From: Clostridia bacterium
GTDB taxonomy: Bacteria > Bacillota > Clostridia > Oscillospirales > SIG627
Assembly: GCA_017537265.1 (NCBI GenBank)
Contig: JAFYLE010000055.1
Location: forward strand, 1-44,459
DNA: 44,459 nt
Reading direction: 5' to 3'
Both the position numbers and the translations under genes were made by a program. Below the pieces are notes generated by a model that had not been told where the DNA came from, ran no database searches, and saw nothing but the letters and a program-made list of their open reading frames with translations. This document shows positions 22,468 to 35,767 of this stretch, piece by piece. Every line of letters begins with the position of its first letter. Positions within the stretch are counted from its first letter, which is position 1.

Positions 22468-22496
22468 TTGATAATTTTTCTTATTAGATATATAAT
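22468..22496 (+). promoter_or_regulatory. Predicted promoter of the murD operon (TTGATA-17 nt-TATAAT)
   Basis: TTGATA at 22468-22473 and TATAAT at 22491-22496 with a 17-nt spacer, in an AT-rich divergent region. Confidence 0.6.
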
Positions 22497-22535: not shown

Positions 22536-23936
22536 ATGACTCGCAGAAAAGACGGTATCCAAGGGCTGAAAAGCCTTGTGGAGAACAAACGCATTGCCCT
22601 CATCGGACTGGGCCGCACGCACAAGCCGCTCGTGAGTCTCTTTCTTTCCCTCGGAGCAAAGAGCGTCACGGCCCGTGACAGGAAAATTGCCGAGCACCCT
22701 TCCCTCGTTGCCGACGGTGCAACGCTCGTTTTGGGTGACGGCTACCTTGAAAACTTAAGCGAAGACATTATCCTGCGCACGCCCGCCATTCGCCCCGACA
22801 TTCCCGCGCTGAATGCGGCGCGCGAAAACGGTGCGCTGGTGACAAGCGAGATGGAACTCTTCCTCACCTTCTGTCCCGCGAAGGTCTTTGCCATCACGGG
22901 CTCCGACGGAAAGACCACCTCCTCCACGCTGACGGCAAAACTTCTGGAGGCCTCGGGATACCGCGTCTTCCTCGGCGGAAACATCGGTCTGCCGCTCTTG
23001 CCGGTGCTGCACGAGATCACAAAGGACGACGCGGCGGTTCTGGAGCTGTCCAGCTTCCAGCTGATGGGCATGACGGTCTCCCCCGAGCATGCGCTGATCA
23101 CCAACCTCTCGGAAAACCACCTCGACTGGCACACGGACATGGCGGAGTACTGCGAAGCGAAGACCGCCGTTTTTACCCACCAGAGCGAAGACGACCTTTT
23201 GGTCTTAAACGCCGACAACGCCGTCACGCGCGCACTTGCGGGACGCGAAAACGGCAGACTGCGCTTCTTCTCCCGCAAGGAAAAAGTGAAAAACGGTACG
23301 TACTGCACCTCCGACACCCTGCGCTTTGCCGAGGACGGAAACGAAAGCCCGCTCTTTGCCCGCGAAGACATTCTGCTGCCCGGGGAGCACAACTTGGAAA
23401 ATTACCTGGCGGCCCTCGCGCTGACGCACGACTTCATCACCGTATCCGCCGCCCTCTCGGTCGCGCGCTCCTTTGCCGGAGTGGCACACCGCATGGAGCT
23501 TGTGCGCGAGGTAAACAAGATCCGCTTCTACAACTCGTCCATCGACTCCTCGCCCGCGCGCTCTTCCGCGACGCTGAAAGCCTTTGCCAAAAAGCCGATC
23601 GTCATCATGGGCGGGTACGACAAACACTTAAACTACGCGCCGCTTGCCCCCATCATCACCGAGCACGTCAAGGCGCTCGTGCTGACCGGGCAGACGGCTC
23701 CCAAGATCGAAAAAGCACTCGCGGAATACGCTGAATTTGCCGCATCCGGCATTCCCCTGCTGAAGGCCGAAGCCTTTGCGGATGCATTTGCCCTTGCCGC
23801 GGGACTTGCCGAAGAAGGCGACCTTGTCTTGCTCTCCCCCGCGAGTGCAAGCTTTGACCAGTTCCGCGACTTTGAAGAACGCGGTGAGGTCTTCCGCACC
23901 TTGGTGCGAGAATTGGAGGAACATGAAAACATTTGA
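22536..23936 (+). CDS. murD: UDP-N-acetylmuramoyl-L-alanine--D-glutamate ligase
   Basis: - 466 aa.
- N-terminal Rossmann segment RIALIGLGRTHKPLV.
- Mur ligase P-loop ITGSDGKTTSSTL.
- C-terminus SPASASFDQFRDFEERGEVF, typical of MurD. Confidence 0.9.
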   Translation: MTRRKDGIQGLKSLVENKRIALIGLGRTHKPLVSLFLSLGAKSVTARDRKIAEHPSLVADGATLVLGDGYLENLSEDIILRTPAIRPDIPALNAARENGALVTSEMELFLTFCPAKVFAITGSDGKTTSSTLTAKLLEASGYRVFLGGNIGLPLLPVLHEITKDDAAVLELSSFQLMGMTVSPEHALITNLSENHLDWHTDMAEYCEAKTAVFTHQSEDDLLVLNADNAVTRALAGRENGRLRFFSRKEKVKNGTYCTSDTLRFAEDGNESPLFAREDILLPGEHNLENYLAALALTHDFITVSAALSVARSFAGVAHRMELVREVNKIRFYNSSIDSSPARSSATLKAFAKKPIVIMGGYDKHLNYAPLAPIITEHVKALVLTGQTAPKIEKALAEYAEFAASGIPLLKAEAFADAFALAAGLAEEGDLVLLSPASASFDQFRDFEERGEVFRTLVRELEEHENI

Positions 23937-24981
23937 CTTTGCAAAAGAGATCGAGGCGCTCTCCTTCATCTCCGGCATTTCCGGCTGTGAGGAGAAGACC
24001 GCCGAGTTCTTCGCGCGCCGTCTTGAAACGCTCTGCGACGAGGTGAAAACGGACGCGATGGGCAACGTACTCGGCATTATCCGCGCCGAAAGCGAAAACG
24101 CGCCGACGATCCTCATCGACTCCCACTCCGACGAGATCGGTTTTCTCGTCTGTGAGCACGCGGGCGGCGGATTCGTCCGTCTGGCACGTGTGGGCGGTAT
24201 GGACCCCGGTGTGCTTCCTGCCAGCGAAGTGATCCTCTACGGTGAAGAGACCGTGCGTGCCGTGGTGGCCGCCAAGCCCCCGCACCTGCTCTCCGCCGAG
24301 GACCGCAAGAAAAAAAGAAAACTCGAAGATCTCTTCGTGGACACCCTGCTCGACGACGAGACTTGCCGCCGCCTCTGCCCCATCGGCACGCCCGTGGGCT
24401 TCTCCGACGGCGTCGTAAAACTTGCCGAGCACAAGATCGCCTCCCGCGGTCTGGACGACCGTGTGGCGGGTCTGACGCTTCTGGCACTTGCCGAGGCGCT
24501 TGAGAAAAAAGCGCTCAAGGCAAACGTCGCCCTGCTCTTCTCCGTTCAGGAAGAAGTGGGCGGCATGGGTGCGAAAGTAGCCGCCTTCGGCCTTGCACCC
24601 GATACCTGTCTTGCCGTAGACGTGAGTTTTGCCACCTTCCCCGGCGGCGAAGGTCGCCTTTTGGAAATGGGCAAGGGTGCGGGCATCTCCTACTCCGATA
24701 CGCTCTCCCGCACGCTGACGCGCGACGTGATCCGCGTGGCAAACGAGAAAGAGATCCCCTTCCAACTTTTAGCCGAGCCCGGAGAGACGGGCACGAATGC
24801 GCACGACATTCAGGTGGCGGGGCGCGGCGTTGCCTCCACCATCATCTCCCTCCCTCTCTCCTACATGCACTCCCCGAGCGAGGTCATTGACACGCGCGAT
24901 CTGGAGAGCGCGGTGCAACTGATGAAAGCCTACTGCGAGAACGCAAAATTCTTCCCCGAGGAGGTACAGATCGTTGGATAA
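23923..24981 (+). CDS. M42-family metallo-aminopeptidase (FrvX/YsdC/TET type), paralog 1
   Basis: 352 aa from ATG 23923, overlapping the murD stop by 14 nt. Metal-ligand motifs: DSHSDEIGFLV, GLDDRVAG, FSVQEEVGGMGA. Confidence 0.85.
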   Translation: MKTFDFAKEIEALSFISGISGCEEKTAEFFARRLETLCDEVKTDAMGNVLGIIRAESENAPTILIDSHSDEIGFLVCEHAGGGFVRLARVGGMDPGVLPASEVILYGEETVRAVVAAKPPHLLSAEDRKKKRKLEDLFVDTLLDDETCRRLCPIGTPVGFSDGVVKLAEHKIASRGLDDRVAGLTLLALAEALEKKALKANVALLFSVQEEVGGMGAKVAAFGLAPDTCLAVDVSFATFPGGEGRLLEMGKGAGISYSDTLSRTLTRDVIRVANEKEIPFQLLAEPGETGTNAHDIQVAGRGVASTIISLPLSYMHSPSEVIDTRDLESAVQLMKAYCENAKFFPEEVQIVG

Positions 24982-26035
24982 CTTTTACGACCTCTTAAAA
25001 GAGCTCTGCGACATCCCCGCACCGAGTTCTCTGGAAGAAAACGTGCGCGCCTTCCTTATCCCTTACCTCAAGGACCACGTGGATTCGATGAAACTCGACC
25101 GCATGGGCAACCTCATCTGCGAAAAACGCGGCAAAAAGAAGCCCAAGGCCAAAATTTTGCTGTGCGCACACATGGACGAGGTGGGATTTATCGTGACCGA
25201 CATTACCGGTGACGGATACCTGAAGTACGGCACGCTCGGCGGCATTGAAGCAAGCATTCTGCCCGCAAAGCGCCTGTACTTCCCGGAGCTTGACATCTAC
25301 GGCGTCATCTGCGCCAAGCCCATTCACCTCTACCGCGACGAAGAAGAGCTCTACGCCCCGACCAAGCACTCCGCGCTCTACATCGACATCGGTGCGCGCA
25401 CCAAGGAAGAGGCGGAAAAACTCGTCAAGATCGGCGACGTTGCCGTCTTCTCCCGCGAGGCACTCCCCTACTACGACGCGGGTGAGATCATTCGCTCCTC
25501 GGCGCTGGACGACCGTCTCGGCTGTGCGATGCTCTGCGAGCTTTTGACCAAGGGCACACCCGAATACGACATTACCGTCGTCTTCCACGTCAAAGAAGAA
25601 TCCGGCCTGCGCGGTGCAAAGGTCGGCGCTTACGTCAACGACTATTCCTACGCGATCATTCTGGAAGGCACGACGGCCTCCGACCTGCCGGAGGCGGTGG
25701 GCATGAACGCCGTCTGCTACCAGAAGAAGGGCGGCGTGCTCTCTCTCTTCGACGGGGCGACGCTCTACGACACGACGCTCGCGCGCGGCGCCATCGACGC
25801 GCTGAAATCCGCGGGCATTGCCGTGCAGACCAAGCTGAGACTCGCGGGCGGAAACGACGCCGCGGCTCTGCAACGCAGTGCGGGTGCCAAAAAGGTGCTT
25901 GCCCTCTCCGCGCCTTGCCGCTACATCCACTCCCCCGTCTCCACCGTGGCAAAACACGACCTCGACGCCATGCGTGCTTCCCTTGACACACTCATCTCCT
26001 ACTGCGCCGCACAAGGCGAGAAAGGTACCTTATGA
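24974..26035 (+). CDS. M42-family metallo-aminopeptidase, paralog 2
   Basis: 353 aa. TTG start 10 nt after GAGGAGG. Motifs: CAHMDEVGFIV, ALDDRLGCA, FHVKEESGLRGA. Confidence 0.85.
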   Translation: MDNFYDLLKELCDIPAPSSLEENVRAFLIPYLKDHVDSMKLDRMGNLICEKRGKKKPKAKILLCAHMDEVGFIVTDITGDGYLKYGTLGGIEASILPAKRLYFPELDIYGVICAKPIHLYRDEEELYAPTKHSALYIDIGARTKEEAEKLVKIGDVAVFSREALPYYDAGEIIRSSALDDRLGCAMLCELLTKGTPEYDITVVFHVKEESGLRGAKVGAYVNDYSYAIILEGTTASDLPEAVGMNAVCYQKKGGVLSLFDGATLYDTTLARGAIDALKSAGIAVQTKLRLAGGNDAAALQRSAGAKKVLALSAPCRYIHSPVSTVAKHDLDAMRASLDTLISYCAAQGEKGTL

Positions 26036-27042
26036 ACTCCATCACCTCCACCCTGCGCGCGCTGACGAACATCCTCTCCGTCAGCGGCGCGGAAGAAAAA
26101 ATGGCCGCTTATATCTCCGAGACCATGCGCCCTCTGTGCGACGACGTGAACGTTGACGCAATGGGCAACGTGATCTGCAAAAAGAACTACAAGGGCGCAA
26201 AAGAGACCGTGATGCTCACGGCACACATGGACGAGATCGGTTTTCTCGTTTGCGACATTGACGAAAACGGCTTCGTCCTGCTTGCACCCATCGGCGGTAT
26301 CCACGCGGATGCCGCGGCCTACACCCGTGTGAAATTCGAAAACGGCCGTCTCGGCGTGCTCGTCCCCTCCCACGGCACGAAGGCTGCGGATCTCGACGCG
26401 CGCGCCTTTGCCTGCGACATCGGAGCAAAGAACCGTGCCGCCGCCGAAAAGCTCGTCAAGATCGGCGACAGATGCGCAAGTTTTGTTCCCCTTGCCACCC
26501 TCGCCGGCAAGCGTGTGACGGCACGTGCGCTGGACAACAAGGCCGGCGTGCTCTCCCTCATCTGCGCCGCCGATGCCCTGAAAGATGAAAAAGACATGCC
26601 CTACAACCTCGTGTACGTCTTTACGGTGCAAGAGGAGGTCGGTCTGCGCGGCGCCGCGCCCGCGGCCTTTGCCGTTGAGCCCGACTACTGCATCAACGTG
26701 GACGTGACCTCCGCAAACGACGCGTACGGCGCAAAAGGCAGCGTGAAGCTCGGCGGCGGTGCCTGCATCAAGTTCAAGGACCGCTCCGTCATCTGCAACC
26801 GCCGCATGATCTGCCACCTGCAGGAATGCGCGAAGAAAGCCGGCCTCAAAACGCAGGCCGAGATCTTGTCCATGGGCGGCACCGACACGGGTGCCGTACA
26901 GTCCTCGCGTGCAGGCGTGGTCTCCGGTGCGATCTCCATTCCCCTGCGCTACGTGCACAGCGACTGCGAAACCGCCTCCCTCTACGACATTGAGGGTACC
27001 ATCGCCCTGCTTGTTTCCGCAGTGAAAACGAACATTCAATAA
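26032..27042 (+). CDS. M42-family metallo-aminopeptidase, paralog 3
   Basis: 336 aa. ATGA overlap with paralog 2. Motifs: TAHMDEIGFLV, ALDNKAG, FTVQEEVGLRGA. Confidence 0.85.
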   Translation: MNSITSTLRALTNILSVSGAEEKMAAYISETMRPLCDDVNVDAMGNVICKKNYKGAKETVMLTAHMDEIGFLVCDIDENGFVLLAPIGGIHADAAAYTRVKFENGRLGVLVPSHGTKAADLDARAFACDIGAKNRAAAEKLVKIGDRCASFVPLATLAGKRVTARALDNKAGVLSLICAADALKDEKDMPYNLVYVFTVQEEVGLRGAAPAAFAVEPDYCINVDVTSANDAYGAKGSVKLGGGACIKFKDRSVICNRRMICHLQECAKKAGLKTQAEILSMGGTDTGAVQSSRAGVVSGAISIPLRYVHSDCETASLYDIEGTIALLVSAVKTNIQ

Positions 27043-27051
27043 AGGACTCAC

Positions 27052-28278
27052 ATGAACACAAAACAACTTCTGCCCGTCATCCTCGGCAGTGACCAAAACG
27101 CGTACGGCATTGCGCGCTCCTTCTACGAAGCGTACGGTGTCAAGAGCGTAATTCTGGCGCGCCGCGCCCTCTCCGCTACCTCGGAGAGCCACATCGTGCA
27201 TTACGCCGTGCTGGAAGAGAGACTGGAGGAAGACGAGGTCTTCGTCGCGACGCTCGTGCGCTTTGCCGAGAATTCCGGTGACAAGTGCCGCCTCCTCATT
27301 CCCTGTTCCGACTACTACGCACGCCTTGCCGCGCGCCACGCGGAAAAACTGAAGGACCACTACCTCTTTGCCCTCTCCGACGAAGAGACGCTCGTGAGCC
27401 TGGCACAAAAAGAAAACTTCTACGCCATGTGCAAGAAATACGCTCTCTCCTACCCGAAGACTTACGAATTCGACCCCAAGCACGAAGAACCGTGCCTGCC
27501 CTTTGACTTCCCCGTGGTGCTCAAGCCCGCGGACAGCGCCTCTTACTGGAACTGCTCCTTCGAGGGTAAACGCAAAGTGTTTTTCCTGACGGATAAAGCG
27601 CAGTTCGACGACGTTGTGCGCCGCCTGAAGGACAGCGACTACAACGAAAACGTACTGGTACAAAAATTCATCGGCGGCGACGACAGCGCCATGCGCGTGG
27701 TCAACGCCTACATCGGCAAGACGGGCGATCTGCGTCTGTTCTGCGTGGGACAAGTGCTTCTGGAGGAACACACGCCCGAGGGAATCGGCTCTTACGCCGC
27801 CATCATGCCCACGCGCGACGAAGAGCTCTTCGCGCTCTTAAAGCCGATGCTGACCGAGATCGGATACCGCGGCTTTTTGAACATTGACGTCAAGGTGGAT
27901 CCCGCAGACGGCACGTACCAATTCTTTGAACTCAACCCGCGCCAAGGCAGATCCAGCTTCTTCGTGACGGCCGCCGGCGCAAATCTTGCCCGTGTCATCA
28001 CCGAGGACGTATTGGGAGAGGCGCCCACCACGCCCCTCTTCCCCTGCGAGGACGTGCTGTGGACCAATCTGCCCAAGGGTGTCATCCGCCGCTACGTGAA
28101 AAACGAAAAACTGCGCAGTGCCGCGCTGAAGGCCATGCGCCGCGGCCGCGTGTGCCACCAGCTCTACTACAAGAAAGACAAGAGCATAAAGCGCACGAAA
28201 TTCTACCTCTTAAACCAACTCAACCAATACCGCAAATACCGCCGCTACTTTATCGACAAACTTGCCCTCGGCAAGTAA
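27052..28278 (+). CDS. ATP-grasp carboxylate-amine ligase (COG3919-like; the family that, as I recall, includes D-aspartate ligases)
   Basis: 408 aa. Blocks: ILGSDQNAYGIARSFYEAYGV, PVVLKPADS, VLVQKFIGGDD..MRVVNAY, FLNIDVKVDPADGTYQFFELNPRQGRSSFFVTAAG. Confidence 0.7.
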   Translation: MNTKQLLPVILGSDQNAYGIARSFYEAYGVKSVILARRALSATSESHIVHYAVLEERLEEDEVFVATLVRFAENSGDKCRLLIPCSDYYARLAARHAEKLKDHYLFALSDEETLVSLAQKENFYAMCKKYALSYPKTYEFDPKHEEPCLPFDFPVVLKPADSASYWNCSFEGKRKVFFLTDKAQFDDVVRRLKDSDYNENVLVQKFIGGDDSAMRVVNAYIGKTGDLRLFCVGQVLLEEHTPEGIGSYAAIMPTRDEELFALLKPMLTEIGYRGFLNIDVKVDPADGTYQFFELNPRQGRSSFFVTAAGANLARVITEDVLGEAPTTPLFPCEDVLWTNLPKGVIRRYVKNEKLRSAALKAMRRGRVCHQLYYKKDKSIKRTKFYLLNQLNQYRKYRRYFIDKLALGK

Positions 28279-28293
28279 GGAAGGAATCAACCT

Positions 28294-30159
28294 ATGTGTG
28301 GCTTTGCCGGATACATTCGTGACAGTTTGCGCGACAACGACACGGATATTCTGAAAAAAATGACCGACCTCATCGCCCATCGCGGGCCGGACGACGCCTC
28401 CGCCTACATTGACGAGGGGGCGTGCCTCGGCTTTCGCCGCCTGTCCATCATTGACCTTGAGGCGGGCAGACAGCCGATGAAAAACGAGGATTCAACGCTC
28501 GTTCTGACCTTCAACGGTGAGATCTACAACTTCCAGTCCCTGCGCGAAGACCTCAAGGCACGCGGACACGTATTTGCCACGGGTGCGGACAGTGAGGTGC
28601 TTCTGCACGGCTACGAAGAATACGGCGAAGAACTCCCCGCACGTCTGCGCGGCATGTTTGCCTTCGTCATCTGGGATACGAAAAACAAAAAACTCTTCGG
28701 CGCGCGTGACATTTTCGGCATCAAGCCCTTTTATTACTACAAAAACGGCTCCTCCTTCTTCTGGGGCAGCGAGATCAAAAGTTTTCTCGCACATCCCGAC
28801 TTCTGCAAGGAGTTTGATGAAAGCCTGCTGCCCACCTGGCTCTGCTACGAGTACATCCCCTGCGAGAAGACCTTCTTCAAAAACGTATTCAAGTTGCCCG
28901 GTGCCCACTCCTTCACGTATCAAAACGGCGTGATGGAAATTCAAAAATACTACGATATCCGCTTTGACATCCGAGAAGGCCGCACGATGGACGACTGGGC
29001 CGCAGACATTCGCCGCGTCTTTGCCGAAAGCGTGCGCGCACACCGCATCGCCGACGTGGAAGTGGGCTGCTTCCTCTCCAGCGGCGTGGACTCCAGCCTG
29101 GTGGCAAACGAAGTCTCCGTTTCCGCCTCCCCGATGGAGGGCGTGACCGATCCCGTTAAGACCTTCTCCGTGGGCTTTGCCGAGGAGAACGTCTCCGAAC
29201 TTGCCGACGCAGCTGAATTTGCCCGCGCGGTGAACTTGCCGAACATTCAAAACCGCATTACGGCGGACGACTTCTTCTCCGCGACCTCAGCAATTCAATA
29301 CATGATGGACGAGCCGCTCCCCAACCCCAGCCAGGTGCCGCTCTATTTCTTGTGCGAAAATGCCGCCAAATACGTGAAAGTAGTCCTCTCCGGCGAAGGT
29401 GCTGACGAACTGTTCGGCGGCTACCCGATGTACCTTGCCGAATGGCATCAAGCGCGCTTTGCCCGCAGAGTGCCGCGCGCCGTGCGCCGCCTTATGGGAA
29501 AAGCGGCCGCCCGCTTCTCCTTCAAAGGCAGTCACTTCCTTGCAGAAAGCGCAAAAACACCTCTGGAGCGTTACCCGCGCGCAAATTACAACTACACCAG
29601 AGAAAGCCGTTGGGACATACTCAAAGAAAAGACGGACGCCCCCGATCCCCTCACCTTCTCCGCACCCTACTTTGCACGCGCCGAACGCGAGGGCTGGGAC
29701 TCCCCCACCGCGACGCAATACGCAGACATTTTCGTGTGGATGGCCTACGACATTCTGCAAAAGGCAGACCGCATGAGTATGGCGCACTCGCTGGAGTTGC
29801 GCGTGCCTTTCCTCGACCGCGAAGTGCTCGCCCTTGCCATGCAGTTGCCGCAGAGCATGCGCGCCTTTGACACCACGACCAAGGCCGCCCTACGCGCCTC
29901 CGCCGCGCACCTGCCGAAAAAGACGGCGACCATGAAGAAAAAAGGCTTTGCCACCCCGCTTGACGCGTGGCTGCGCGAAGAAAAATTCTACAACGAAGTC
30001 TACGGAAAACTGACCGGCGAGATCGCCGAAAAATTCTTCAAGACCGACGTGCTCAAACGCCTGATGGAAGAACACAAGAAGGGCGCGCACAACATGAAAA
30101 AGATCTACCTGATCTACTCGTTCGTGGTATGGTACGAAGAATTCTTTGTAAAAAGATAA
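28294..30159 (+). CDS. asnB: Asparagine synthetase B-type glutamine amidotransferase
   Basis: 621 aa. N-terminal nucleophile MCGFAGY, PP-loop FLSSGVDSS and a typical AsnB C-terminal domain. The true substrate is not determinable from sequence. Confidence 0.85.
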   Translation: MCGFAGYIRDSLRDNDTDILKKMTDLIAHRGPDDASAYIDEGACLGFRRLSIIDLEAGRQPMKNEDSTLVLTFNGEIYNFQSLREDLKARGHVFATGADSEVLLHGYEEYGEELPARLRGMFAFVIWDTKNKKLFGARDIFGIKPFYYYKNGSSFFWGSEIKSFLAHPDFCKEFDESLLPTWLCYEYIPCEKTFFKNVFKLPGAHSFTYQNGVMEIQKYYDIRFDIREGRTMDDWAADIRRVFAESVRAHRIADVEVGCFLSSGVDSSLVANEVSVSASPMEGVTDPVKTFSVGFAEENVSELADAAEFARAVNLPNIQNRITADDFFSATSAIQYMMDEPLPNPSQVPLYFLCENAAKYVKVVLSGEGADELFGGYPMYLAEWHQARFARRVPRAVRRLMGKAAARFSFKGSHFLAESAKTPLERYPRANYNYTRESRWDILKEKTDAPDPLTFSAPYFARAEREGWDSPTATQYADIFVWMAYDILQKADRMSMAHSLELRVPFLDREVLALAMQLPQSMRAFDTTTKAALRASAAHLPKKTATMKKKGFATPLDAWLREEKFYNEVYGKLTGEIAEKFFKTDVLKRLMEEHKKGAHNMKKIYLIYSFVVWYEEFFVKR

Positions 30160-30164
30160 CGAAA

Positions 30165-30192
30165 AAGCCCGCGTTCTGCGGGCTTCTTTGTT
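30165..30192 (+). terminator. Rho-independent terminator ending the murD operon
   Basis: AAGCCCGC-gttct-GCGGGCTT followed by CTTTGTT. Confidence 0.75.
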
Positions 30193-30201
30193 GCTCAAAT
30201 T

Positions 30202-30254
30202 TTACGATTATTCGTAATATTGAACTTGACTTTTACGAAAACTTGTGATATAAT
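30202..30254 (+). promoter_or_regulatory. Promoter (TTGACT-17 nt-TATAAT) with TTACGA operator-like half-sites
   Basis: - Promoter: TTGACT at 30226-30231 and TATAAT at 30249-30254.
- Palindrome TTACGA-ttat-TCGTAA at 30202-30217.
- A third TTACGA at 30233-30238, inside the spacer. Confidence 0.55.
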
Positions 30255-30309
30255 TTGCTCAAGCGAATGAGGGGCGCGAAGAATGACTTTTGCAAAGGAG
30301 AAAATACAA

Positions 30310-30522
30310 ATGAATACGACTGCAAGAGAGATGCGTGGAAATCTTCGCGCCGCGCTGGACTCCGTACGGCAGGCAACGCAGAGTCTGCCGCAGGAAATGG
30401 AAGAGATCTACGACGACTTAAAGTGGGTGGAAGAATCGTTATTGGCGGCGCTTGTCGAACGCGAAGAAACGTTCGCCGTCGAGCGGGAGACCAAGGAACT
30501 CGAGGAGCTCTTCGAATGCTGA
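30310..30522 (+). CDS. Small acidic helical protein (70 aa), unknown family
   Basis: ATG 30310 lies 10 nt after AAGGAG. The product is MNTTAREMRGNLRAALDSVRQATQSLPQEMEEIYDDLKWVEESLL... The stop overlaps the next gene's start (ATGCTGA). ATG 30283 is an alternative start. Confidence 0.55.
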   Translation: MNTTAREMRGNLRAALDSVRQATQSLPQEMEEIYDDLKWVEESLLAALVEREETFAVERETKELEELFEC

Positions 30523-31037
30523 AAAACGCCGCCGGACACGCAATGCGCGGAGATGCGGCAAGCCGCTTTTTGGCAAAACTTGAGCGCATGCGCACCTGCA
30601 TTGACGAAGAGGAACGCCTGCTTTCCCTCTTTGAGCGACAGGTGCCGAAGCCCCTTTCCGAATACGGCGGCATGGATCTTGCAACGCACGACGTGCTTCT
30701 GGAACTTGCCCCGACCAAGGACGCCGTGCGCACCAAGTTGTTCGTGCACTACCGCGTGTTTGAACGAATGTGCCGTGCACTCTCCGCGGCGATCCGCCGC
30801 ATTCCCGAAAGCACGGTGCGCGACTACCTCGTATGGCACTACCTCTACCAATTCACCCACGAGGTCATTGCCGAGGTGATGAACTACTCCGTGCGCCAGA
30901 TCTACCGACTGGCCGCGCGCTCGCGCGTGGAGCTCTCCCGCGCGCTGAAGATTCCCCCGCAGGCAAAGCCCGCAAAGTTCAAGCGCTTTCGCGTAGTGAA
31001 ACGCTTAAAGAAGTGCAAACTGAAAAAGGCGGGGTAA
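30516..31037 (+). CDS. Sigma-70 region-4-like HTH regulator (DUF1492/phage or ICE-type activator-like)
   Basis: 173 aa. The C-terminal segment TVRDYLVWHYLYQFTHEVIAEVMNYSVRQIYRLAARSRVELSRAL looks like a region-4 HTH, followed by a basic tail. The ORF-track start at 30255 lies inside the -10 box and its first 87 codons are Arg/Gly-rich shadow frame. Confidence 0.55.
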   Translation: MLKNAAGHAMRGDAASRFLAKLERMRTCIDEEERLLSLFERQVPKPLSEYGGMDLATHDVLLELAPTKDAVRTKLFVHYRVFERMCRALSAAIRRIPESTVRDYLVWHYLYQFTHEVIAEVMNYSVRQIYRLAARSRVELSRALKIPPQAKPAKFKRFRVVKRLKKCKLKKAG

Positions 31038-31135
31038 AAAACGATAACAAACGTTCTTTTCAAAAGAAAAACGCAAAAACGGCCTACGGTGTATCCGAAC
31101 CGTCTTGACACCGACAAAGAAAAACCGCGCTTTAT

Positions 31136-31171
31136 GGCGTTGTACCCGTAAGGATACAACGCCAGTTTTAT
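31136..31171 (+). terminator. Hairpin with GUAA tetraloop plus U-tract
   Basis: GGCGTTGTA-cc-c-GTAA-gg-a-TACAACGCC followed by AGTTTTATT. Confidence 0.6.
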
Positions 31172-31288
31172 TCGCCTTTGGCGAGTTGTATTGCTTCGCA
31201 GTTATATTTGTCTTACGACAAGTGTTATTGCCTTCGGCAGTTTCGGGGCGAATAAAATACCACTGAAACCGTAAGGTTTCAATAACAC
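31166..31288 (+). other. Hairpin-rich spacer with two interleaved perfect inverted repeats
   Basis: - Pair A: TTTTATTCGCC (31166-31176) with GGCGAATAAAA (31247-31257).
- Pair B: GTGTTATTG (31222-31230) with CAATAACAC (31280-31288).
- The order is A-B-A'-B'.
- Small local hairpins lie at 31172-31184, 31208-31221, 31229-31239 and 31265-31280. Confidence 0.7.
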
Positions 31289-31304
31289 TTTTGATTTATC
31301 AAAA

Positions 31305-31365
31305 ATATCACTGTGAGACCTGTCTCACAATATCACTTGAAAAACAAACTAAAAATTTATATAAT
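31305..31365 (+). promoter_or_regulatory. Operator-like palindrome plus consensus promoter (TTGAAA-17 nt-TATAAT)
   Basis: - Palindrome TGTGAGAC-ct-GTCTCACA at 31312-31329.
- Flanked by direct ATATCACT copies at 31305-31312 and 31330-31337.
- Promoter: TTGAAA at 31337-31342 and TATAAT at 31360-31365. Confidence 0.55.
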
Positions 31366-31383
31366 AAACCTAGAGGTGATTTT

Positions 31384-31788
31384 ATGGGTTTGTTTGATAT
31401 CTTTAAGAAAAAGAAGGTTGAATTAACCGAAGAACAATTAAAATGGAATAAAATGTGGGAGCTGTGGACTGAGAAAAAGGTGGATTCTCCATATGCAGAG
31501 CTTATGACATACCAAAGCGAAATCAACAATGGCGGACACAACCAATATTTCACCAATGTTGAAAACACAAGTGATTTAAACAAAGAAATTTCCGCCTTGG
31601 AACAAATCTTGTCAGCAGAACTGAAAAATAATCTGAATAAAGCATATAAAGCTTATTTGATATTAGAGAAAAAAGAGGAAGACGAAGAAGCGGAGGAAAC
31701 TTTAGAACAGTGCGACGATGTATTCTATGAAAACGAGGAAGAAGTTAATCGTTTGCTTGAAGAATATGCTTGTAAAATAGAACTGTGA
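31384..31788 (+). CDS. DMP19/DUF4375-like protein (DNA-mimic or immunity-type family), AT-rich
   Basis: 134 aa from ATG 31384. The motif SEINNGGHNQYFTNVEN resembles the NNGGFxQFFxN core of DUF4375. The C-terminus is acidic. The ORF-track TTG start at 31291 precedes the predicted promoter. Confidence 0.6.
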   Translation: MGLFDIFKKKKVELTEEQLKWNKMWELWTEKKVDSPYAELMTYQSEINNGGHNQYFTNVENTSDLNKEISALEQILSAELKNNLNKAYKAYLILEKKEEDEEAEETLEQCDDVFYENEEEVNRLLEEYACKIEL

Positions 31789-31894
31789 TTTAACCCGCTG
31801 TTTACTTAGCAAGGTTGAAAGGGTTTTAGGTTCTCCTAAAGTGTAGAAAATTTGATATACATTTTCCCTGCTTGTTACGGTGTAAGACAAAATT

Positions 31895-31928
31895 AAAAGA
31901 AGCACGAAATTTTCGTGCTTCTTTTTTT
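31895..31928. terminator. Bidirectional terminator between convergent genes
   Basis: AAAAGAAGCACGA-aattt-TCGTGCTTCTTTTTTT. Confidence 0.85.
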
Positions 31929-31972: not shown

Positions 31973-33877
31973 TTACTCTTCATCGAAGCCGAAGATGGGG
32001 GCGTCGCCGCCGTCCTCCTCGTCCTCGTCGATAATGGGGTTATTCTTACGGAAGACGTCCTCGTCGCTCTCCCCGTTGAAGATGCGCTCGATCTCCGGAT
32101 GTCCGCGGCGCTCCTCGGCGGGGACTGCGCTCGCCGACTTGGGCGCGCTCTCGCGGCGCTGGCGGGAAGGTGTAAGTTCGGACAAGGGCTCGATCGTTCC
32201 GAGCTCCTCCCAAATGGGAACGGAACGGCTTCCCTTCTCCTCGCCCGACGTTGCGGCAAGTGCGGCCACGAGGGCGGCGGCGTCCTCTGCGAGAACGGGT
32301 TCCTCCTTCTTTGGCAAGGGCGGGATCTCCTGCGTGGGGGCGGCGGCGGTAAAAGACACAGTCTCCTCTGCGACGGAGGAAATCTCCTGCGGCAAAAAAT
32401 AAGGCGTTTGCTCTTGCGGCACGTCCTCGCGCGCGACGGTGGCGGGCGGGTAATACAAAGGCAATTCCTCTTGTTGCTCACGGCGTTTGCCGCGACGGGC
32501 AGCAAGGACGGCAAAGACGATCACAAGAATGATGAGAATCAGAATGACGGCGCCTGCAATAAGAACTGCATAATTGAAATAGCGCAGAAGTTCGCCCTTT
32601 TCCTCCACGGCCTCGGACAAGGCGGCTTTGAGCTCCTCGTTCTCTCCCTCCTGCGGCGTGACGGTCTGCGGCTCAAAATAAAGAGTAAAGTCGCCGCTCT
32701 TGCGATCGTAACGGTAAAAAGCGGGGCTGCCGTCGATGGGGGCGGCATACACGAGTGTTTGCGGAGAAGACAAGGTTACGTCGTTCTTCTCCCAGGCGTC
32801 TTGCTCGACACCCGCAACCACGAGAATGCTCGGCACAAAGCCCTCGGGGACGGAGACGTTTTGCGGTTTTTTTACAAAAACGTATTTCTGCGGGACGGTC
32901 TCCACCTCAAAGTAGGGGTAGAACTCGCCCGACGCCTCGTCGTACAAAAAGGCCTTAGATGCGCTCTCTGCCGAAGTCTGCGTGATGAGCACGGCAAGCT
33001 TCAGCGAAGAAGCGGCGTTCTCATAAAACAAAACCGACTTGCCGTTATACGTACCCTCCACGGGGGCAAAACCTGCGGGAGCGGTGACCTCCGAGGGATC
33101 CCGCGGGAAGAGGTAACTATCCCCCTCGACGGTGACCTGCTCGGCAAACAAATTCGACGCCTTGCGATTTACGACGACGGTATAAGTCCTGGTATTGCCG
33201 TTCTCGGCGGTGACGGTGATCTGAACGGTATTCTCACCCTCTGCGAGTTCGTCCGCGCCCGAAACGCGCACGGAGGCGGCGCTGTGTTTGGCGGAAGCGG
33301 CAAACTTGAGGCCCGTGACGGAATACGGCACCTCGCCGCTGTAGCGGGTGACGTCGGGGTCAAAATCCGGTGTAAATGCAAAGCCCTCGCAAGTGAGTGC
33401 AGAGAGGCGGTTCTCCCACGATGCGGCGGGACGATTGACGATGGAAACGGTGCGGCTCGCCTCCGAAACGGAGATGGAAGAATAATCCTCCGCATACACC
33501 TCACGCGTGACGGTGGAGATCCTTGCCTCGCCGAGAGCGACGGTCTTGAACGTGATGGTATAGCTCTTGCTCGTCACACCGCCCGAAGCAGGCTGATCGA
33601 CAAAATTCAAGGTGCCGCCCGTGGTGGACTGAGCACCCGAGACGTACTGCAGTTTGTCGGAATCGTACTCGATACCGAAGCTCCACGTGGCCATGGGTGT
33701 GGCAGAGGTATACGTGACGGTAACGTAAACGTGATTGCCCAGATACACCTCGCGTGCGGAAAGGCCGATGGTAGCCGTGCCGCCTGCCGCATAGGCGCGC
33801 AGGCTGATAAAAGCAGGCAACAGAAGGGCAAGGGCAAGCAAGATCAAAAACAGACGGAACACAAAGCGTTTTTTCAT
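31973..33877 (-). CDS. Type-I membrane protein with cohesin-like domain, cadherin-like beta-sandwich domain, TM helix and long acidic cytoplasmic tail
   Basis: - Signal peptide MKKRFVFRLFLILLALALLLPAFISLRAYA.
- Cohesin-like block: ATIGLS..YLGNHVYVTVTY...WSFGIEYDSDKLQYV...ITFKTVALGEARI.
- Cadherin-like block: LSALTCEGFAFTPDFDPDVTRY...ITVTAENGNTRTYTVVVNR.
- TM helix AVLIAGAVILILIILVIVFAVLAA. Confidence 0.7.
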   Translation of the reverse strand: MKKRFVFRLFLILLALALLLPAFISLRAYAAGGTATIGLSAREVYLGNHVYVTVTYTSATPMATWSFGIEYDSDKLQYVSGAQSTTGGTLNFVDQPASGGVTSKSYTITFKTVALGEARISTVTREVYAEDYSSISVSEASRTVSIVNRPAASWENRLSALTCEGFAFTPDFDPDVTRYSGEVPYSVTGLKFAASAKHSAASVRVSGADELAEGENTVQITVTAENGNTRTYTVVVNRKASNLFAEQVTVEGDSYLFPRDPSEVTAPAGFAPVEGTYNGKSVLFYENAASSLKLAVLITQTSAESASKAFLYDEASGEFYPYFEVETVPQKYVFVKKPQNVSVPEGFVPSILVVAGVEQDAWEKNDVTLSSPQTLVYAAPIDGSPAFYRYDRKSGDFTLYFEPQTVTPQEGENEELKAALSEAVEEKGELLRYFNYAVLIAGAVILILIILVIVFAVLAARRGKRREQQEELPLYYPPATVAREDVPQEQTPYFLPQEISSVAEETVSFTAAAPTQEIPPLPKKEEPVLAEDAAALVAALAATSGEEKGSRSVPIWEELGTIEPLSELTPSRQRRESAPKSASAVPAEERRGHPEIERIFNGESDEDVFRKNNPIIDEDEEDGGDAPIFGFDEE

Positions 33878-33883
33878 GAATAA

Positions 33884-35767
33884 TTACCCTTTCTGTGAAA
33901 TGGTGTATAGTCCGAGATTGGCGTCGCGCAGTTTCAGTAAGTCAAGCGAATTGACCTTGCCGTCACCGTCGATATCCGCCGCGGCTTTGTAGGCTGAGGC
34001 AAAGTCCTTTTTGCCGAGCAAATAGTCGCGCAGATACAAAAGGTCAAGCGCTTCCACGCCGCCATTACCCGAGACGTCCCCACGCACGACAGCGGTATAG
34101 CTGCGGATCACTTCCCCTTTGAAGAGAATGCGCACCTGCGTGCCGGTACCGACTGCGGCGGAAGAGATGCTAAGCGTCGTTTCCTCACCCAAAGTAAAGC
34201 GGGAGCGGAAAGCCTTTTCTTCGGTCTTCGGTGCAATGCCGTACATGAAACCGTCGTCCGTCATGGTGTATTGTGACTCGAAAAACGGCTTAAGCTCCTC
34301 TGCGGGAGGATCCTCCTGTGCGGGCGGTTCGGTCGGTTCTCCGCCCTCGGGGGTCTCTCCTCCGCTTCCCTCTCCGCCGCCCGACGGCGGGACGGGACTG
34401 ATACTGTCCACGGTCGGCAAGGGAGAAACGGTCTGCGGCATATCATTGTAAACAGGGATCAAAAACTCATGGGAAAGCTCCGTCAAAGTATGCTCCTGCA
34501 TACTGCGGAAGGTGAAAAGAGCCTCCGTCTCCGGATGGGTGAGGTTCTGCATGTACTGATGCCAGATACCGTTGGGAGAGGCGGGATTGACGTTGAATTT
34601 CTTGAGATACGCGGTCTGCTGACCGTTGTTTATGTAATTGTCCCCTTGGAATGAGGCGCCGCCGACGATGGCCTTGTACGCCGTATTCCAGCCCTTCTCC
34701 ATGGCGTAGAGCAGGCCGTTGTGCTGGGGGCTGCCGCCCGGTGTGGAACCGATGCCGTAAAAGTTATAATAGCCGCGATGCTCCTCGCTGTCACAGCCTG
34801 CCTTGGTGCAGACGATCCCGTCGTGATTGCCCATGGAAAGACCCGTGCCGACGGTGCCGTTTTCCGCAAAGGAGGTGATGAGAAGGTAATACGGGCTGAT
34901 GCCGGTGAGCTTGGCAGCGTCCAAAAACGCCTCGGCGTAGCTGACCTCTTCCTCCCGATCGTTTACAGTCGTCAAGGTAGCCATATAAGTGCCTTCCACC
35001 ATCTTTTCCACGCTCTCAAGCGTGTGGATGCTCTCGTCATACGCCTGTGCGGAGAACATGAAGATATCCACGTCGTTCAAGAAATTGCGCGGATCCATGA
35101 AATACGCAACGGTCGCCTCCGACGCACAATACTTGGTGCCGCCGTCAAGCAAGGTGGTGGCGGCGTTCATGCCGTTGAGCGTAACGGTGGAGCGGTAAAC
35201 GGACGCGTACGACTTGTCGATAAACGAGGGAGAGGAAAGATCCCCGCGGCTGTTGACGGAAACCACCGCCTGCGCGCTGACGGCCGAGGAAAAGTCCTTC
35301 TCGGTCTCCAGCGGTAAAAACGTCCACGTAGGATGAGCCGCCTTGAGCGCGGCGAGGGCGGGACGGTAGCTTTGCGGAAACTTTGCAAACTCCTCGGTTT
35401 CATAGTCCAGCTTCTCCCCCGCAAACACGAGGGTGCTGTGCACGTAACCGACGTAACACTTCCCATCCTTCAAATTGGTGTAGCGCACCTTATACCAAAG
35501 CGTGGAGCCGTCGTAAGAGTCGCCCTCAACTTCCTCCAAAACGGGCAAGACCTGATGCTTGCCGAAGGAAAAGTCGTACTTGCTCTCCGGATTCAAATTC
35601 GGCGCCTTGCGGAAGCGAATGGAGGCGGTGGTATAACAGTAGCGCAAAGGAAGTTCCTGTTCTGCGGGTGCGTCTGCAAAAAGAGTCAAAAACGGCGGGA
35701 GGACGGCAAAAAACAGAAGGGTACACAAAAGGGCGCAGAGAGCGCGCAAAAAGCGAGTGCGATGCAT
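33884..35767 (-). CDS. Secreted SH3b + glucosaminidase-like (GH73-type) peptidoglycan hydrolase with C-terminal type-I dockerin
   Basis: - Signal peptide present.
- SH3b-like block: LWYKVRY...GYVHSTLV.
- Hydrolase-like block: YYLLITSFAENG...YYNFYGIGS...GQQTAYLKKFNVNP.
- Dockerin duplicated Ca-binding loops: DVSGNGGVEALDLLYLRDYLLG and DIDGDGKVNSLDLLKLRDANLG.
The dockerin call is strong; the catalytic family call is moderate. Confidence 0.7.
   Translation of the reverse strand: MHRTRFLRALCALLCTLLFFAVLPPFLTLFADAPAEQELPLRYCYTTASIRFRKAPNLNPESKYDFSFGKHQVLPVLEEVEGDSYDGSTLWYKVRYTNLKDGKCYVGYVHSTLVFAGEKLDYETEEFAKFPQSYRPALAALKAAHPTWTFLPLETEKDFSSAVSAQAVVSVNSRGDLSSPSFIDKSYASVYRSTVTLNGMNAATTLLDGGTKYCASEATVAYFMDPRNFLNDVDIFMFSAQAYDESIHTLESVEKMVEGTYMATLTTVNDREEEVSYAEAFLDAAKLTGISPYYLLITSFAENGTVGTGLSMGNHDGIVCTKAGCDSEEHRGYYNFYGIGSTPGGSPQHNGLLYAMEKGWNTAYKAIVGGASFQGDNYINNGQQTAYLKKFNVNPASPNGIWHQYMQNLTHPETEALFTFRSMQEHTLTELSHEFLIPVYNDMPQTVSPLPTVDSISPVPPSGGGEGSGGETPEGGEPTEPPAQEDPPAEELKPFFESQYTMTDDGFMYGIAPKTEEKAFRSRFTLGEETTLSISSAAVGTGTQVRILFKGEVIRSYTAVVRGDVSGNGGVEALDLLYLRDYLLGKKDFASAYKAAADIDGDGKVNSLDLLKLRDANLGLYTISQKG

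Follow-up and report, generated by a model that had tools for sequence, protein, structure and literature searches.

A putative D-aspartate ligase and amidotransferase gene pair joined to a murD operon in a gut Clostridia genome with a diaminopimelate-type MurE

Organization of the locus

Contig JAFYLE010000055.1 (C58), a 44,459-nucleotide stretch referred to here as the window, belongs to a gut Clostridia genome bin (G000) of 1.12 Mb in 145 contigs that is 80% complete. It carries two adjacent genes, coding for an ATP-grasp protein (P0001) and an AsnB-type glutamine amidotransferase (P0002), which together are a candidate system for adding D-aspartate (D-Asp) to a peptidoglycan precursor and amidating the product. 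The two genes are the last of six closely spaced genes that begin with murD, and the features of this unit are as follows.

22468..22496, + strand: promoter-like site upstream of murD, TTGATA-17-TATAAT (11/12 matches in a consensus scan; prediction only)
22536..23936, + strand: murD, UDP-MurNAc-L-Ala:D-Glu ligase, gene 1 of the six-gene unit (TIGR01087, 341.6 bits against a cut-off of 212; Pfam Mur_ligase_M and Mur_ligase_C)
23924..24981, + strand: M42 aminopeptidase 1 (Peptidase_M42, E = 3.9e-66)
24974..26035, + strand: M42 aminopeptidase 2 (Peptidase_M42, E = 2.1e-65)
26032..27042, + strand: M42 aminopeptidase 3 (Peptidase_M42, E = 3.4e-74)
27052..28278, + strand: P0001, ATP-grasp ligase assigned to the Asl (D-aspartate ligase) family from homologs, gene contexts, a tree and an AlphaFold2 (AF2) model
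28294..30159, + strand: P0002, AsnB-family glutamine amidotransferase, ligase-coupled paralog by its Pfam and NCBIfam domains, clade and genome distribution
30165..30185, + strand, readable on both strands: hairpin terminator-like site directly after AsnB, with a 9-bp stem and 6 GC pairs

The open reading frames (ORFs) of P0001 (408 amino acids) and P0002 (621 amino acids) are open at the positions, and have the lengths, given for them in the initial annotation. Each neighbouring pair among the six genes either overlaps or is no more than 15 bp apart, 15 bp being the distance from the ligase stop codon to the AsnB start codon. The first M42 gene begins at an ATG behind GGAGG, as read from the sequence, and overlaps the 3' end of murD; its start position is the same as in the called genes of loci L003 and L004. 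The scan finds no comparable promoter or terminator site between the promoter-like site and the hairpin. Given the compact spacing, the single promoter-like site and the single terminator, co-transcription of all six genes from murD, which the initial annotation had proposed, is plausible from the layout, although murD is not adjacent to the ATP-grasp gene but separated from it by the three M42 genes (23924-27042). The ligase-AsnB pair is probably read from the murD promoter. The genes upstream of murD, coding for an M18 peptidase, CoaE, Sua5, RF-1 and IreB, lie on the minus strand. A 590-amino-acid ORF on the opposite strand (25999-27771) is regarded not as a gene but as the shadow that the M42 and ligase genes cast in GC-rich DNA; the homology is all on the plus strand.

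The ATP-grasp ligase and its relatives

In lactic acid bacteria, the ATP-grasp enzyme AslA adds D-Asp to L-lysine (L-Lys) via a beta-aspartyl phosphate, aslA shares its operon with racD, and AsnH afterwards amidates the D-Asp alpha-carboxyl (PMC4155827). Sequence comparison assigns P0001, over its full length, to the ligase family of bacteria whose Lys-D-Asp walls are chemically established. Full-length homologs are present in lactobacilli (34-38% identity, from a tblastn search of plasmid-labelled records), and a multiple alignment of these with P0001 has invariant residues over its entire length. Homologs are also plentiful in Clostridia bins, and a scan of one genome per species yields 80 loci, many of them in Oscillospirales and others in Planococcaceae at 41-45% identity to P0001 (Lysinibacillus, Ureibacillus, Viridibacillus, Rummeliibacillus, Paenisporosarcina, Planomicrobium and Sporosarcina). 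Over residues 1-403 the identity to the proteins of Lysinibacillus, Ureibacillus, Viridibacillus and others is 43-44%, and the Vagococcus homolog is 40% identical. All Lysinibacillus species characteristically have a Lys-D-Asp (A4alpha) wall (PMC11961540). The Atlas clusters nearest to P0001 carry the automatic name 'D-aspartate ligase family', which is taken as a lead only. In all of these comparisons, homologs of P0001 and P0002 from lactobacilli, Vagococcus and Planococcaceae stand in for the characterised Aslfm, AslA and AsnH.

The initial annotation had singled out two motif blocks in P0001, an N-terminal VILGSDQNAYGIARSF block and a FELNPRQGRSSFFVT block, and both are present and are invariant or near-invariant across the family. 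The FELNPRQGRSS block aligns with EMNPRVSRSS of carbamoyl-phosphate synthetase, and this E-x-N-x-R-x-G-R-S-S element, the Mg-ATP / acyl-phosphate motif, is invariant within the family. Curated profile models were unable to name the protein: there is no Pfam family at E <= 0.001, and the NCBIfam matches are weak, non-specific ones to 'carbamoyl phosphate synthase-like' models. The AF2 model (pLDDT 92.4) has a generic three-domain ATP-grasp fold, and its top matches in the Protein Data Bank are all ATP-grasp enzymes of generic fold sharing 12-16% identity, the best being the L-amino-acid ligase 3VOT (TM 0.54-0.58). Searches of that database by sequence and by fold return generic ATP-grasp enzymes only and no solved structure of the Asl family. 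In a FastTree phylogeny of 101 ligases, P0001 and the two homologs nearest to it make up a clade with a long branch, nested in a group of 62 Oscillospirales sequences (support 98) that is sister to Planococcaceae. Of 105 positions conserved at 90% or more among the other ligases of the family, 95 are retained in this clade.

About 100 ligase loci were annotated by phmmer with reference proteins taken from the window and the loci themselves. In almost all of them the ligase gene adjoins genes for an aspartate racemase, AsnB and/or a second MurE that is not of the diaminopimelate (DAP) type, and the racemase-family gene and/or AsnB gene nearly always lies 3' of it. The common order in Oscillospirales is AsnB, ligase, racemase, AsnB; Vagococcus has asnB, murE, ligase, racemase, Latilactobacillus curvatus has aspS, amino-acid racemase, ligase, and Lactobacillus crispatus has asnB, ligase. 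Of the 16 other ligase-positive genomes that were sampled in the window's order, nine have a second MurE, which adjoins the ligase in eight of these nine; in place of the DNPR motif discussed below it has DNPN, DNPD, DNPG, DDPG, E[DE]xG or DDPQ, so that the Arg is missing. These recurrent neighbours are what a wall side-chain module would look like. With the full-length match to homologs from lactic acid bacteria and Planococcaceae, they bear out at the family level the reading of P0001 as a D-Asp-ligase-type enzyme.

In the Lysinibacillus sphaericus group (L058:9777-10982, with the same position in L060, L062, L083 and L086), the racemase position of other Planococcaceae is taken by a gene for an M42 peptidase, which here begins 0.5-1.2 kb downstream of the ligase.

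The aspartate racemase

The window contains no aspartate racemase, as had been noted at the outset, and the operon or neighbourhood link between racemase and ligase that is held in most loci of the family is absent from this genome. A search of the whole bin finds two Asp_Glu_race genes, murI beside ddl on contig C83 and an Asp-racemase-family gene between nagA and nadE on contig C65, the latter unlinked to the ligase. The C65 protein has both catalytic Cys motifs and exceeds the TIGR00035 cut-off (115.5 bits against 93.1). In a set of 31 genomes from the window's order, a racemase of this family is found above the cut-off in 14 of the 17 ligase-positive genomes and in one of the 14 ligase-negative ones, counts that overstate independence, as the genomes are related. 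Within the window's family it occurs above the cut-off only in ligase-bearing genomes, namely those of the window's genus and a single genome from another genus.

MurE and the predicted acceptor

The only MurE of G000 is encoded on contig C81, beside murF and a penicillin-binding protein gene, and has the motif DNPRTEEP, which is canonical for meso-DAP. It scores 541 bits against the DAP-ligase equivalog NF001126 (cut-off 373) and falls below the Lys-ligase model, with 320 bits against a cut-off of 536. The Asn and Arg of DNPR bind the distal carboxyl of meso-DAP, and Staphylococcus aureus MurE has DNPA at this place (PMC3829189). The remaining Mur-ligase-family genes of G000 are MurC, MurD, MurF and FolC, and all genes of the family are accounted for. 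The congener G119, which is 96% complete, also has a single MurE with the DNPR motif, and no second MurE was found in either genome. DapF is present in both, and G119 has DapA and a LysA-like gene. Because the only MurE of each genome is of the DAP type, a classical L-Lys acceptor is not predicted for this organism, and meso-DAP, possibly amidated, may be the acceptor as the simplest alternative.

The MurE motifs in 30 further ligase-bearing genomes are distributed as follows.

DNPR only: 16 genomes
DNSR[FY]E: 7 genomes
DNNR[FY]E: 6 genomes
DDPA: 1 genome
DNPR plus DNPA: 1 genome
no MurE found: 1 genome

The cultured Fumia xinanensis has the gene set ligase-racemase-AsnB with a single DNPR MurE.

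The chief competitor to a meso-DAP acceptor is classical A4alpha chemistry, in which the ligase places D-Asp on the position-3 L-Lys for conversion to D-isoasparagine (D-isoAsn) by AsnB, with the DNPR MurE also accepting L-Lys or a Lys-type MurE missing from the assemblies. We regard this as unlikely, though by no means negligible. Every characterised Asl enzyme uses L-Lys (PMC4155827), nine sampled relatives have a non-DAP-type MurE, in eight of them beside the ligase, and the incompleteness of G000 leaves room for a missing gene; the S. aureus study attributes lysine selection by MurE partly to substrate pools and not to the active site alone (PMC3829189). Such a scheme has to contend, however, with the single DNPR MurE of the nearly complete congener, with the DNPR-only state of more than half of the 30 other ligase-bearing genomes, with the assignment of every Mur-ligase-family gene in G000, and with the scores of the genome's own MurE, which passes the DAP-ligase cut-off and fails the Lys-ligase one.

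Among the various MurE arrangements at other ligase loci, we note several that differ from that of the window. Acutalibacter, Neglectibacter and Anaeromassilibacillus genomes that have the ligase show the variant ADNSR[FY]E. In Gemmiger, Subdoligranulum and Faecalibacterium bins (L041, L047, L067, L070, L077, L088 and L091), a MurE (EDNNR[FY]E) and an AsnB are placed divergently beside ligase-AsnB, and no racemase is nearby. Some Oscillospirales (L143:6522-9119, + strand; L144:3212-5596, - strand) have the second, non-DAP-type MurE fused to a C-terminal amino-acid-kinase domain (PF00696) in a protein of 795-866 amino acids whose gene adjoins the racemase and the ligase; the proximity of an aspartokinase-superfamily domain to a ligase whose reaction passes through beta-aspartyl phosphate is intriguing. 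A Lysinibacillus sphaericus genome (G004; L105, L107) encodes two MurE paralogs, DDPR and DNPR, which fits the reported occurrence in this species of lysine in vegetative cell walls and of DAP in the cortex of its spores. Loci L155 and L156 (genomes G045 and G117) have a deep-branching ligase-like gene paired with AsnB in genomes with a DNPR MurE and no Asp-racemase-family gene above the cut-off; this ligase-like protein may use a different donor amino acid or have a different function.

The AsnB-family amidotransferase

P0002 begins with MCGF (residues 1-4), and the Cys2 nucleophile reported for it is thus present; its PP-loop reads SSGVDSS and not SGGVDSS, as had been given, and aligns with the SGGLDSS loop of the solved homolog 7YLZ. 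The SSGVDSS-type variant is shared by 70 of 83 ligase-linked AsnBs. The protein has GATase_7 (E = 9.8e-45) and Asn_synthase (E = 1e-80) domains in Pfam. G000 encodes two full AsnB proteins, P0002 and a paralog on contig C67 that is 36% identical to it. All eight relatives sampled from the family have the C67 type (36-38% identity to P0002), whether or not they also have the ligase. The P0002 type (at least 43% identity) is confined to ligase-positive genomes except for G013, one of the 14 ligase-negative relatives, and in the window's family no genus but the ligase-bearing one has it. A phylogeny of 77 AsnBs assigns P0002 to a 46-member clade with 100% support, every member of which lies downstream of a ligase, and the AsnBs upstream of ligases fall in other clades. 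Many relatives have two ligase-linked AsnBs, one on either side. Because the P0002 type tracks the ligase, the C67 type is shared regardless of it, and the clade is one of genes downstream of ligases, P0002 is best described as a ligase-coupled accessory paralog and is unlikely to be a general asparagine synthetase.

As to what P0002 amidates, sequence does not separate D-Asp amidation, meso-DAP amidation and asparagine synthesis (PMC8554201). One scenario is that P0002 amidates the epsilon-carboxyl of meso-DAP and not the D-Asp branch, with the ligase acting on amidated meso-DAP or independently of it. The genome is predicted to be of the DAP type, amidation of meso-DAP by AsnB homologs is well documented in Firmicutes (PMC8554201, PMC4155827), and the paired upstream and downstream AsnBs of many relatives fit two amidation sites, but a general meso-DAP amidase would not be expected to lie always downstream of a ligase and to be present in just one of the 14 ligase-negative, DAP-type relatives. 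In Lactobacillus plantarum, asnB1 adjoins murE (PMC4155827); the murE of G000 is on C81. The amidation site is not assignable from sequence alone, and we think it improbable that this scenario is the right one. P0002 resembles the meso-DAP epsilon-carboxyl amidotransferases AsnB1 of L. plantarum, AsnB of B. subtilis, Listeria and C. difficile, and LtsA of Corynebacterium in having a Cys2 glutaminase and a PP-loop synthetase domain, and in its predicted action on a cytoplasmic wall precursor in a DAP-type background; unlike the AsnB1/LtsA type, it is coupled to an Asl-type ligase and not to murE, and is nearly absent from ligase-free DAP-type relatives.

That P0002 is instead the cell's asparagine synthetase, placed beside the ligase incidentally, is very unlikely: its 472 bits do exceed the cut-off of 267 for TIGR01536, a generic asparagine synthase equivalog, and AsnB paralogs are often promiscuous and may complement asparagine auxotrophy (PMC8554201), but the C67-type protein is the one conserved in all eight family relatives, and the P0002 clade is defined by its location downstream of the ligase.

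History of the murD-M42 operon

Ligase-free relatives of the same family (G070, G104 and G149) carry a murD-M42-M42(-M42) operon, and in G149 it adjoins the same IreB, RF-1 and Sua5 neighbours as in the window. As the murD-M42 operon is present in relatives that lack the ligase, the ligase-AsnB pair was joined to the 3' end of a pre-existing murD-M42x3 operon, with the M42 genes outside the ligase module. In Merdivicinus-type genomes, ligase-racemase-AsnB is found divergently upstream of murD-M42. The murD-M42 region is thus a recurrent neighbour of the ligase module, and linkage to murD is by itself weak evidence of function, because the ancestral operon also occurs without the ligase; we have down-weighted it for that reason. 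The conservation within the family of murD followed by two or three tandem M42 genes, ligase-free genomes included (window 22536-27042; L216, L217 and L218), is an observation in its own right, as it couples MurD, the D-Glu-adding enzyme, with glutamyl-type aminopeptidases.

The three M42 genes raise the prospect of a non-wall cluster, in which M42, ATP-grasp and AsnB proteins together synthesise or recycle a short amidated peptide, in the manner of the NAGGN osmoprotectant system (Ngg GNAT/ATP-grasp, AsnO amidotransferase and M42 peptidase), or a dapdiamide/tabtoxin-type secondary metabolite. The same three enzyme classes stand side by side in the NAGGN system, there are weak matches to its models, and the best structural match of P0001 is an L-amino-acid ligase; unlike that system, however, the window's proteins score far under the cut-offs (TIGR03104, 318 bits against 570; TIGR03106, 39-69 bits against 398), P0001 lacks a GNAT domain, and the M42 genes are part of a murD operon that exists independently of the ligase, so that a NAGGN-like trio was rejected. 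With the structural matches being generic and the recurrent neighbours of the ligase family being racemase, MurE and AsnB, a non-wall role of any kind is highly improbable.

A proposed pathway

A plausible scenario, which we hold with moderate confidence, is that P0001 is an Asl-type ligase and P0002 its dedicated amidotransferase, that the pair was added 3' of murD-M42x3, and that meso-DAP rather than L-Lys is the acceptor. The pathway would be drawn by analogy with Aslfm/AslA and AsnH. The data directly establish the family assignments, the coupling and distribution of the genes and the motif of MurE; the donor, the acceptor, the site of amidation and co-transcription are inferred. The Asp-racemase-family enzyme from C65 would supply D-Asp; the ligase, with ATP, would activate the D-Asp beta-carboxyl as an acyl phosphate and join D-Asp to the free side-chain amine of the residue-3 diamino acid in a cytoplasmic peptidoglycan precursor; and P0002 would then amidate a free carboxyl of the product with glutamine-derived ammonia, the likeliest site being the D-Asp alpha-carboxyl, to give D-isoAsn. 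The suggestion in the initial annotation of an add-then-amidate reaction on a wall precursor stands at the level of enzyme families, that is, of an Asl-like ligase and an AsnH-like amidotransferase, from homology, gene coupling and co-occurrence.

The arrangement can be compared with Aslfm-Racfm of Enterococcus faecium and AslA-RacD-AsnH of Lactococcus lactis. Common to them are an ATP-grasp ligase of the same family with a coupled AsnB-type amidotransferase, an Asp-racemase-family gene in the genome and linkage to mur genes, and the same gene sets recur in the homolog loci of lactobacilli, Vagococcus and Planococcaceae. The locus departs from these characterised systems in three respects that were tested: the racemase is outside the operon, the pair is joined to the murD-M42x3 operon, and the only MurE is of the DAP (DNPR) type. 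It also differs in that the ligase belongs to a long-branched clade and comes from an uncultured gut Oscillospirales-type Clostridium. The chemotype expected from a D-Asp ligase acting on meso-DAP is A4gamma peptidoglycan, in which meso-DAP carries a bridge of a dicarboxylic D-amino acid; such walls exist, for example in Brachybacterium faecium, and are known from Actinobacteria, and their presence in this organism is a prediction.

Several observations weigh against this pathway, in addition to the L-Lys acceptor of all characterised Asl enzymes and the incompleteness of G000. The P0001 clade has a branch length of 0.7 substitutions per site, deviates at ten of the 105 family-conserved positions (Y193K, K290Q and L361A, for example) and has lost the linked racemase, and its donor or acceptor may therefore have shifted. 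The donor could also be D-Glu, since some Planococcaceae with P0001 homologs are described as having D-Glu bridges. The C65 racemase is divergent, with only 37% identity to a ligase-linked enzyme, and sits on a long branch that prevents its placement, so that the racemase tree gives no indication of its substrate. The homology of P0001 was established with relatives of Aslfm and AslA from lactic acid bacteria and Planococcaceae. To our knowledge, a D-Asp branch on meso-DAP has been reported only as the rare A4gamma type in Actinobacteria; in the literature we found no report of a D-Asp/D-isoAsn-on-meso-DAP (A4gamma-like) chemotype in Firmicutes and no paper on Lys-D-Asp in Ruminococcaceae.

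A broader and more tentative proposal, on which we would place less than even confidence, is that the window's genus and many gut Oscillospirales that have the ligase (with or without the racemase), AsnB and a DNPR-only MurE attach D-Asp/D-isoAsn to meso-DAP, which may itself be amidated, to form a side chain or cross-bridge of an A4gamma-like kind.

Other features of the window

Directly 3' of the AsnB terminator is a low-GC stretch (30200-31900; 45% GC against about 57%), and a second promoter-like site (30226-30254) lies where it begins. The stretch encodes a 260-amino-acid ORF with a weak match to sigma-70 region 4 and a 165-amino-acid DMP19-like ORF; the closest relatives have different small ORFs at this place, and the segment may be foreign DNA. 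Further along, on the minus strand (31973-35767), adjoining genes code for a protein with cohesin and cadherin-like domains and for a dockerin-bearing protein, a pairing that suggests a cellulosome-like surface assembly.

Implications

The enzyme pair itself belongs to a known pathway and at the level of enzyme families is useful rather than surprising; what is different is the setting, in which the D-Asp adding and amidating pair of lactic acid bacteria is found in a gut Clostridia genome with an apparent DAP wall and not the usual lysine wall. Ruminococcaceae and Oscillospiraceae are major gut commensals, and the wall chemotype of most of them is listed as unknown, with Faecalibacterium given only as meso-DAP (2024 review, PMC11382707). 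The ligase is usually annotated just as 'ATP-grasp domain-containing protein', with no Pfam and no specific NCBIfam match, and the predicted wall branch is therefore invisible in standard annotation. If amidated D-Asp is indeed carried on, or bridges, DAP-type stems, the Asl family would include members with a DAP rather than a Lys acceptor, and the muropeptides released by these bacteria would not be the plain DAP-type ligands that NOD1/NOD2 sensing is assumed to involve, a change that would also touch susceptibility to lysozyme and endopeptidases and sortase anchoring.

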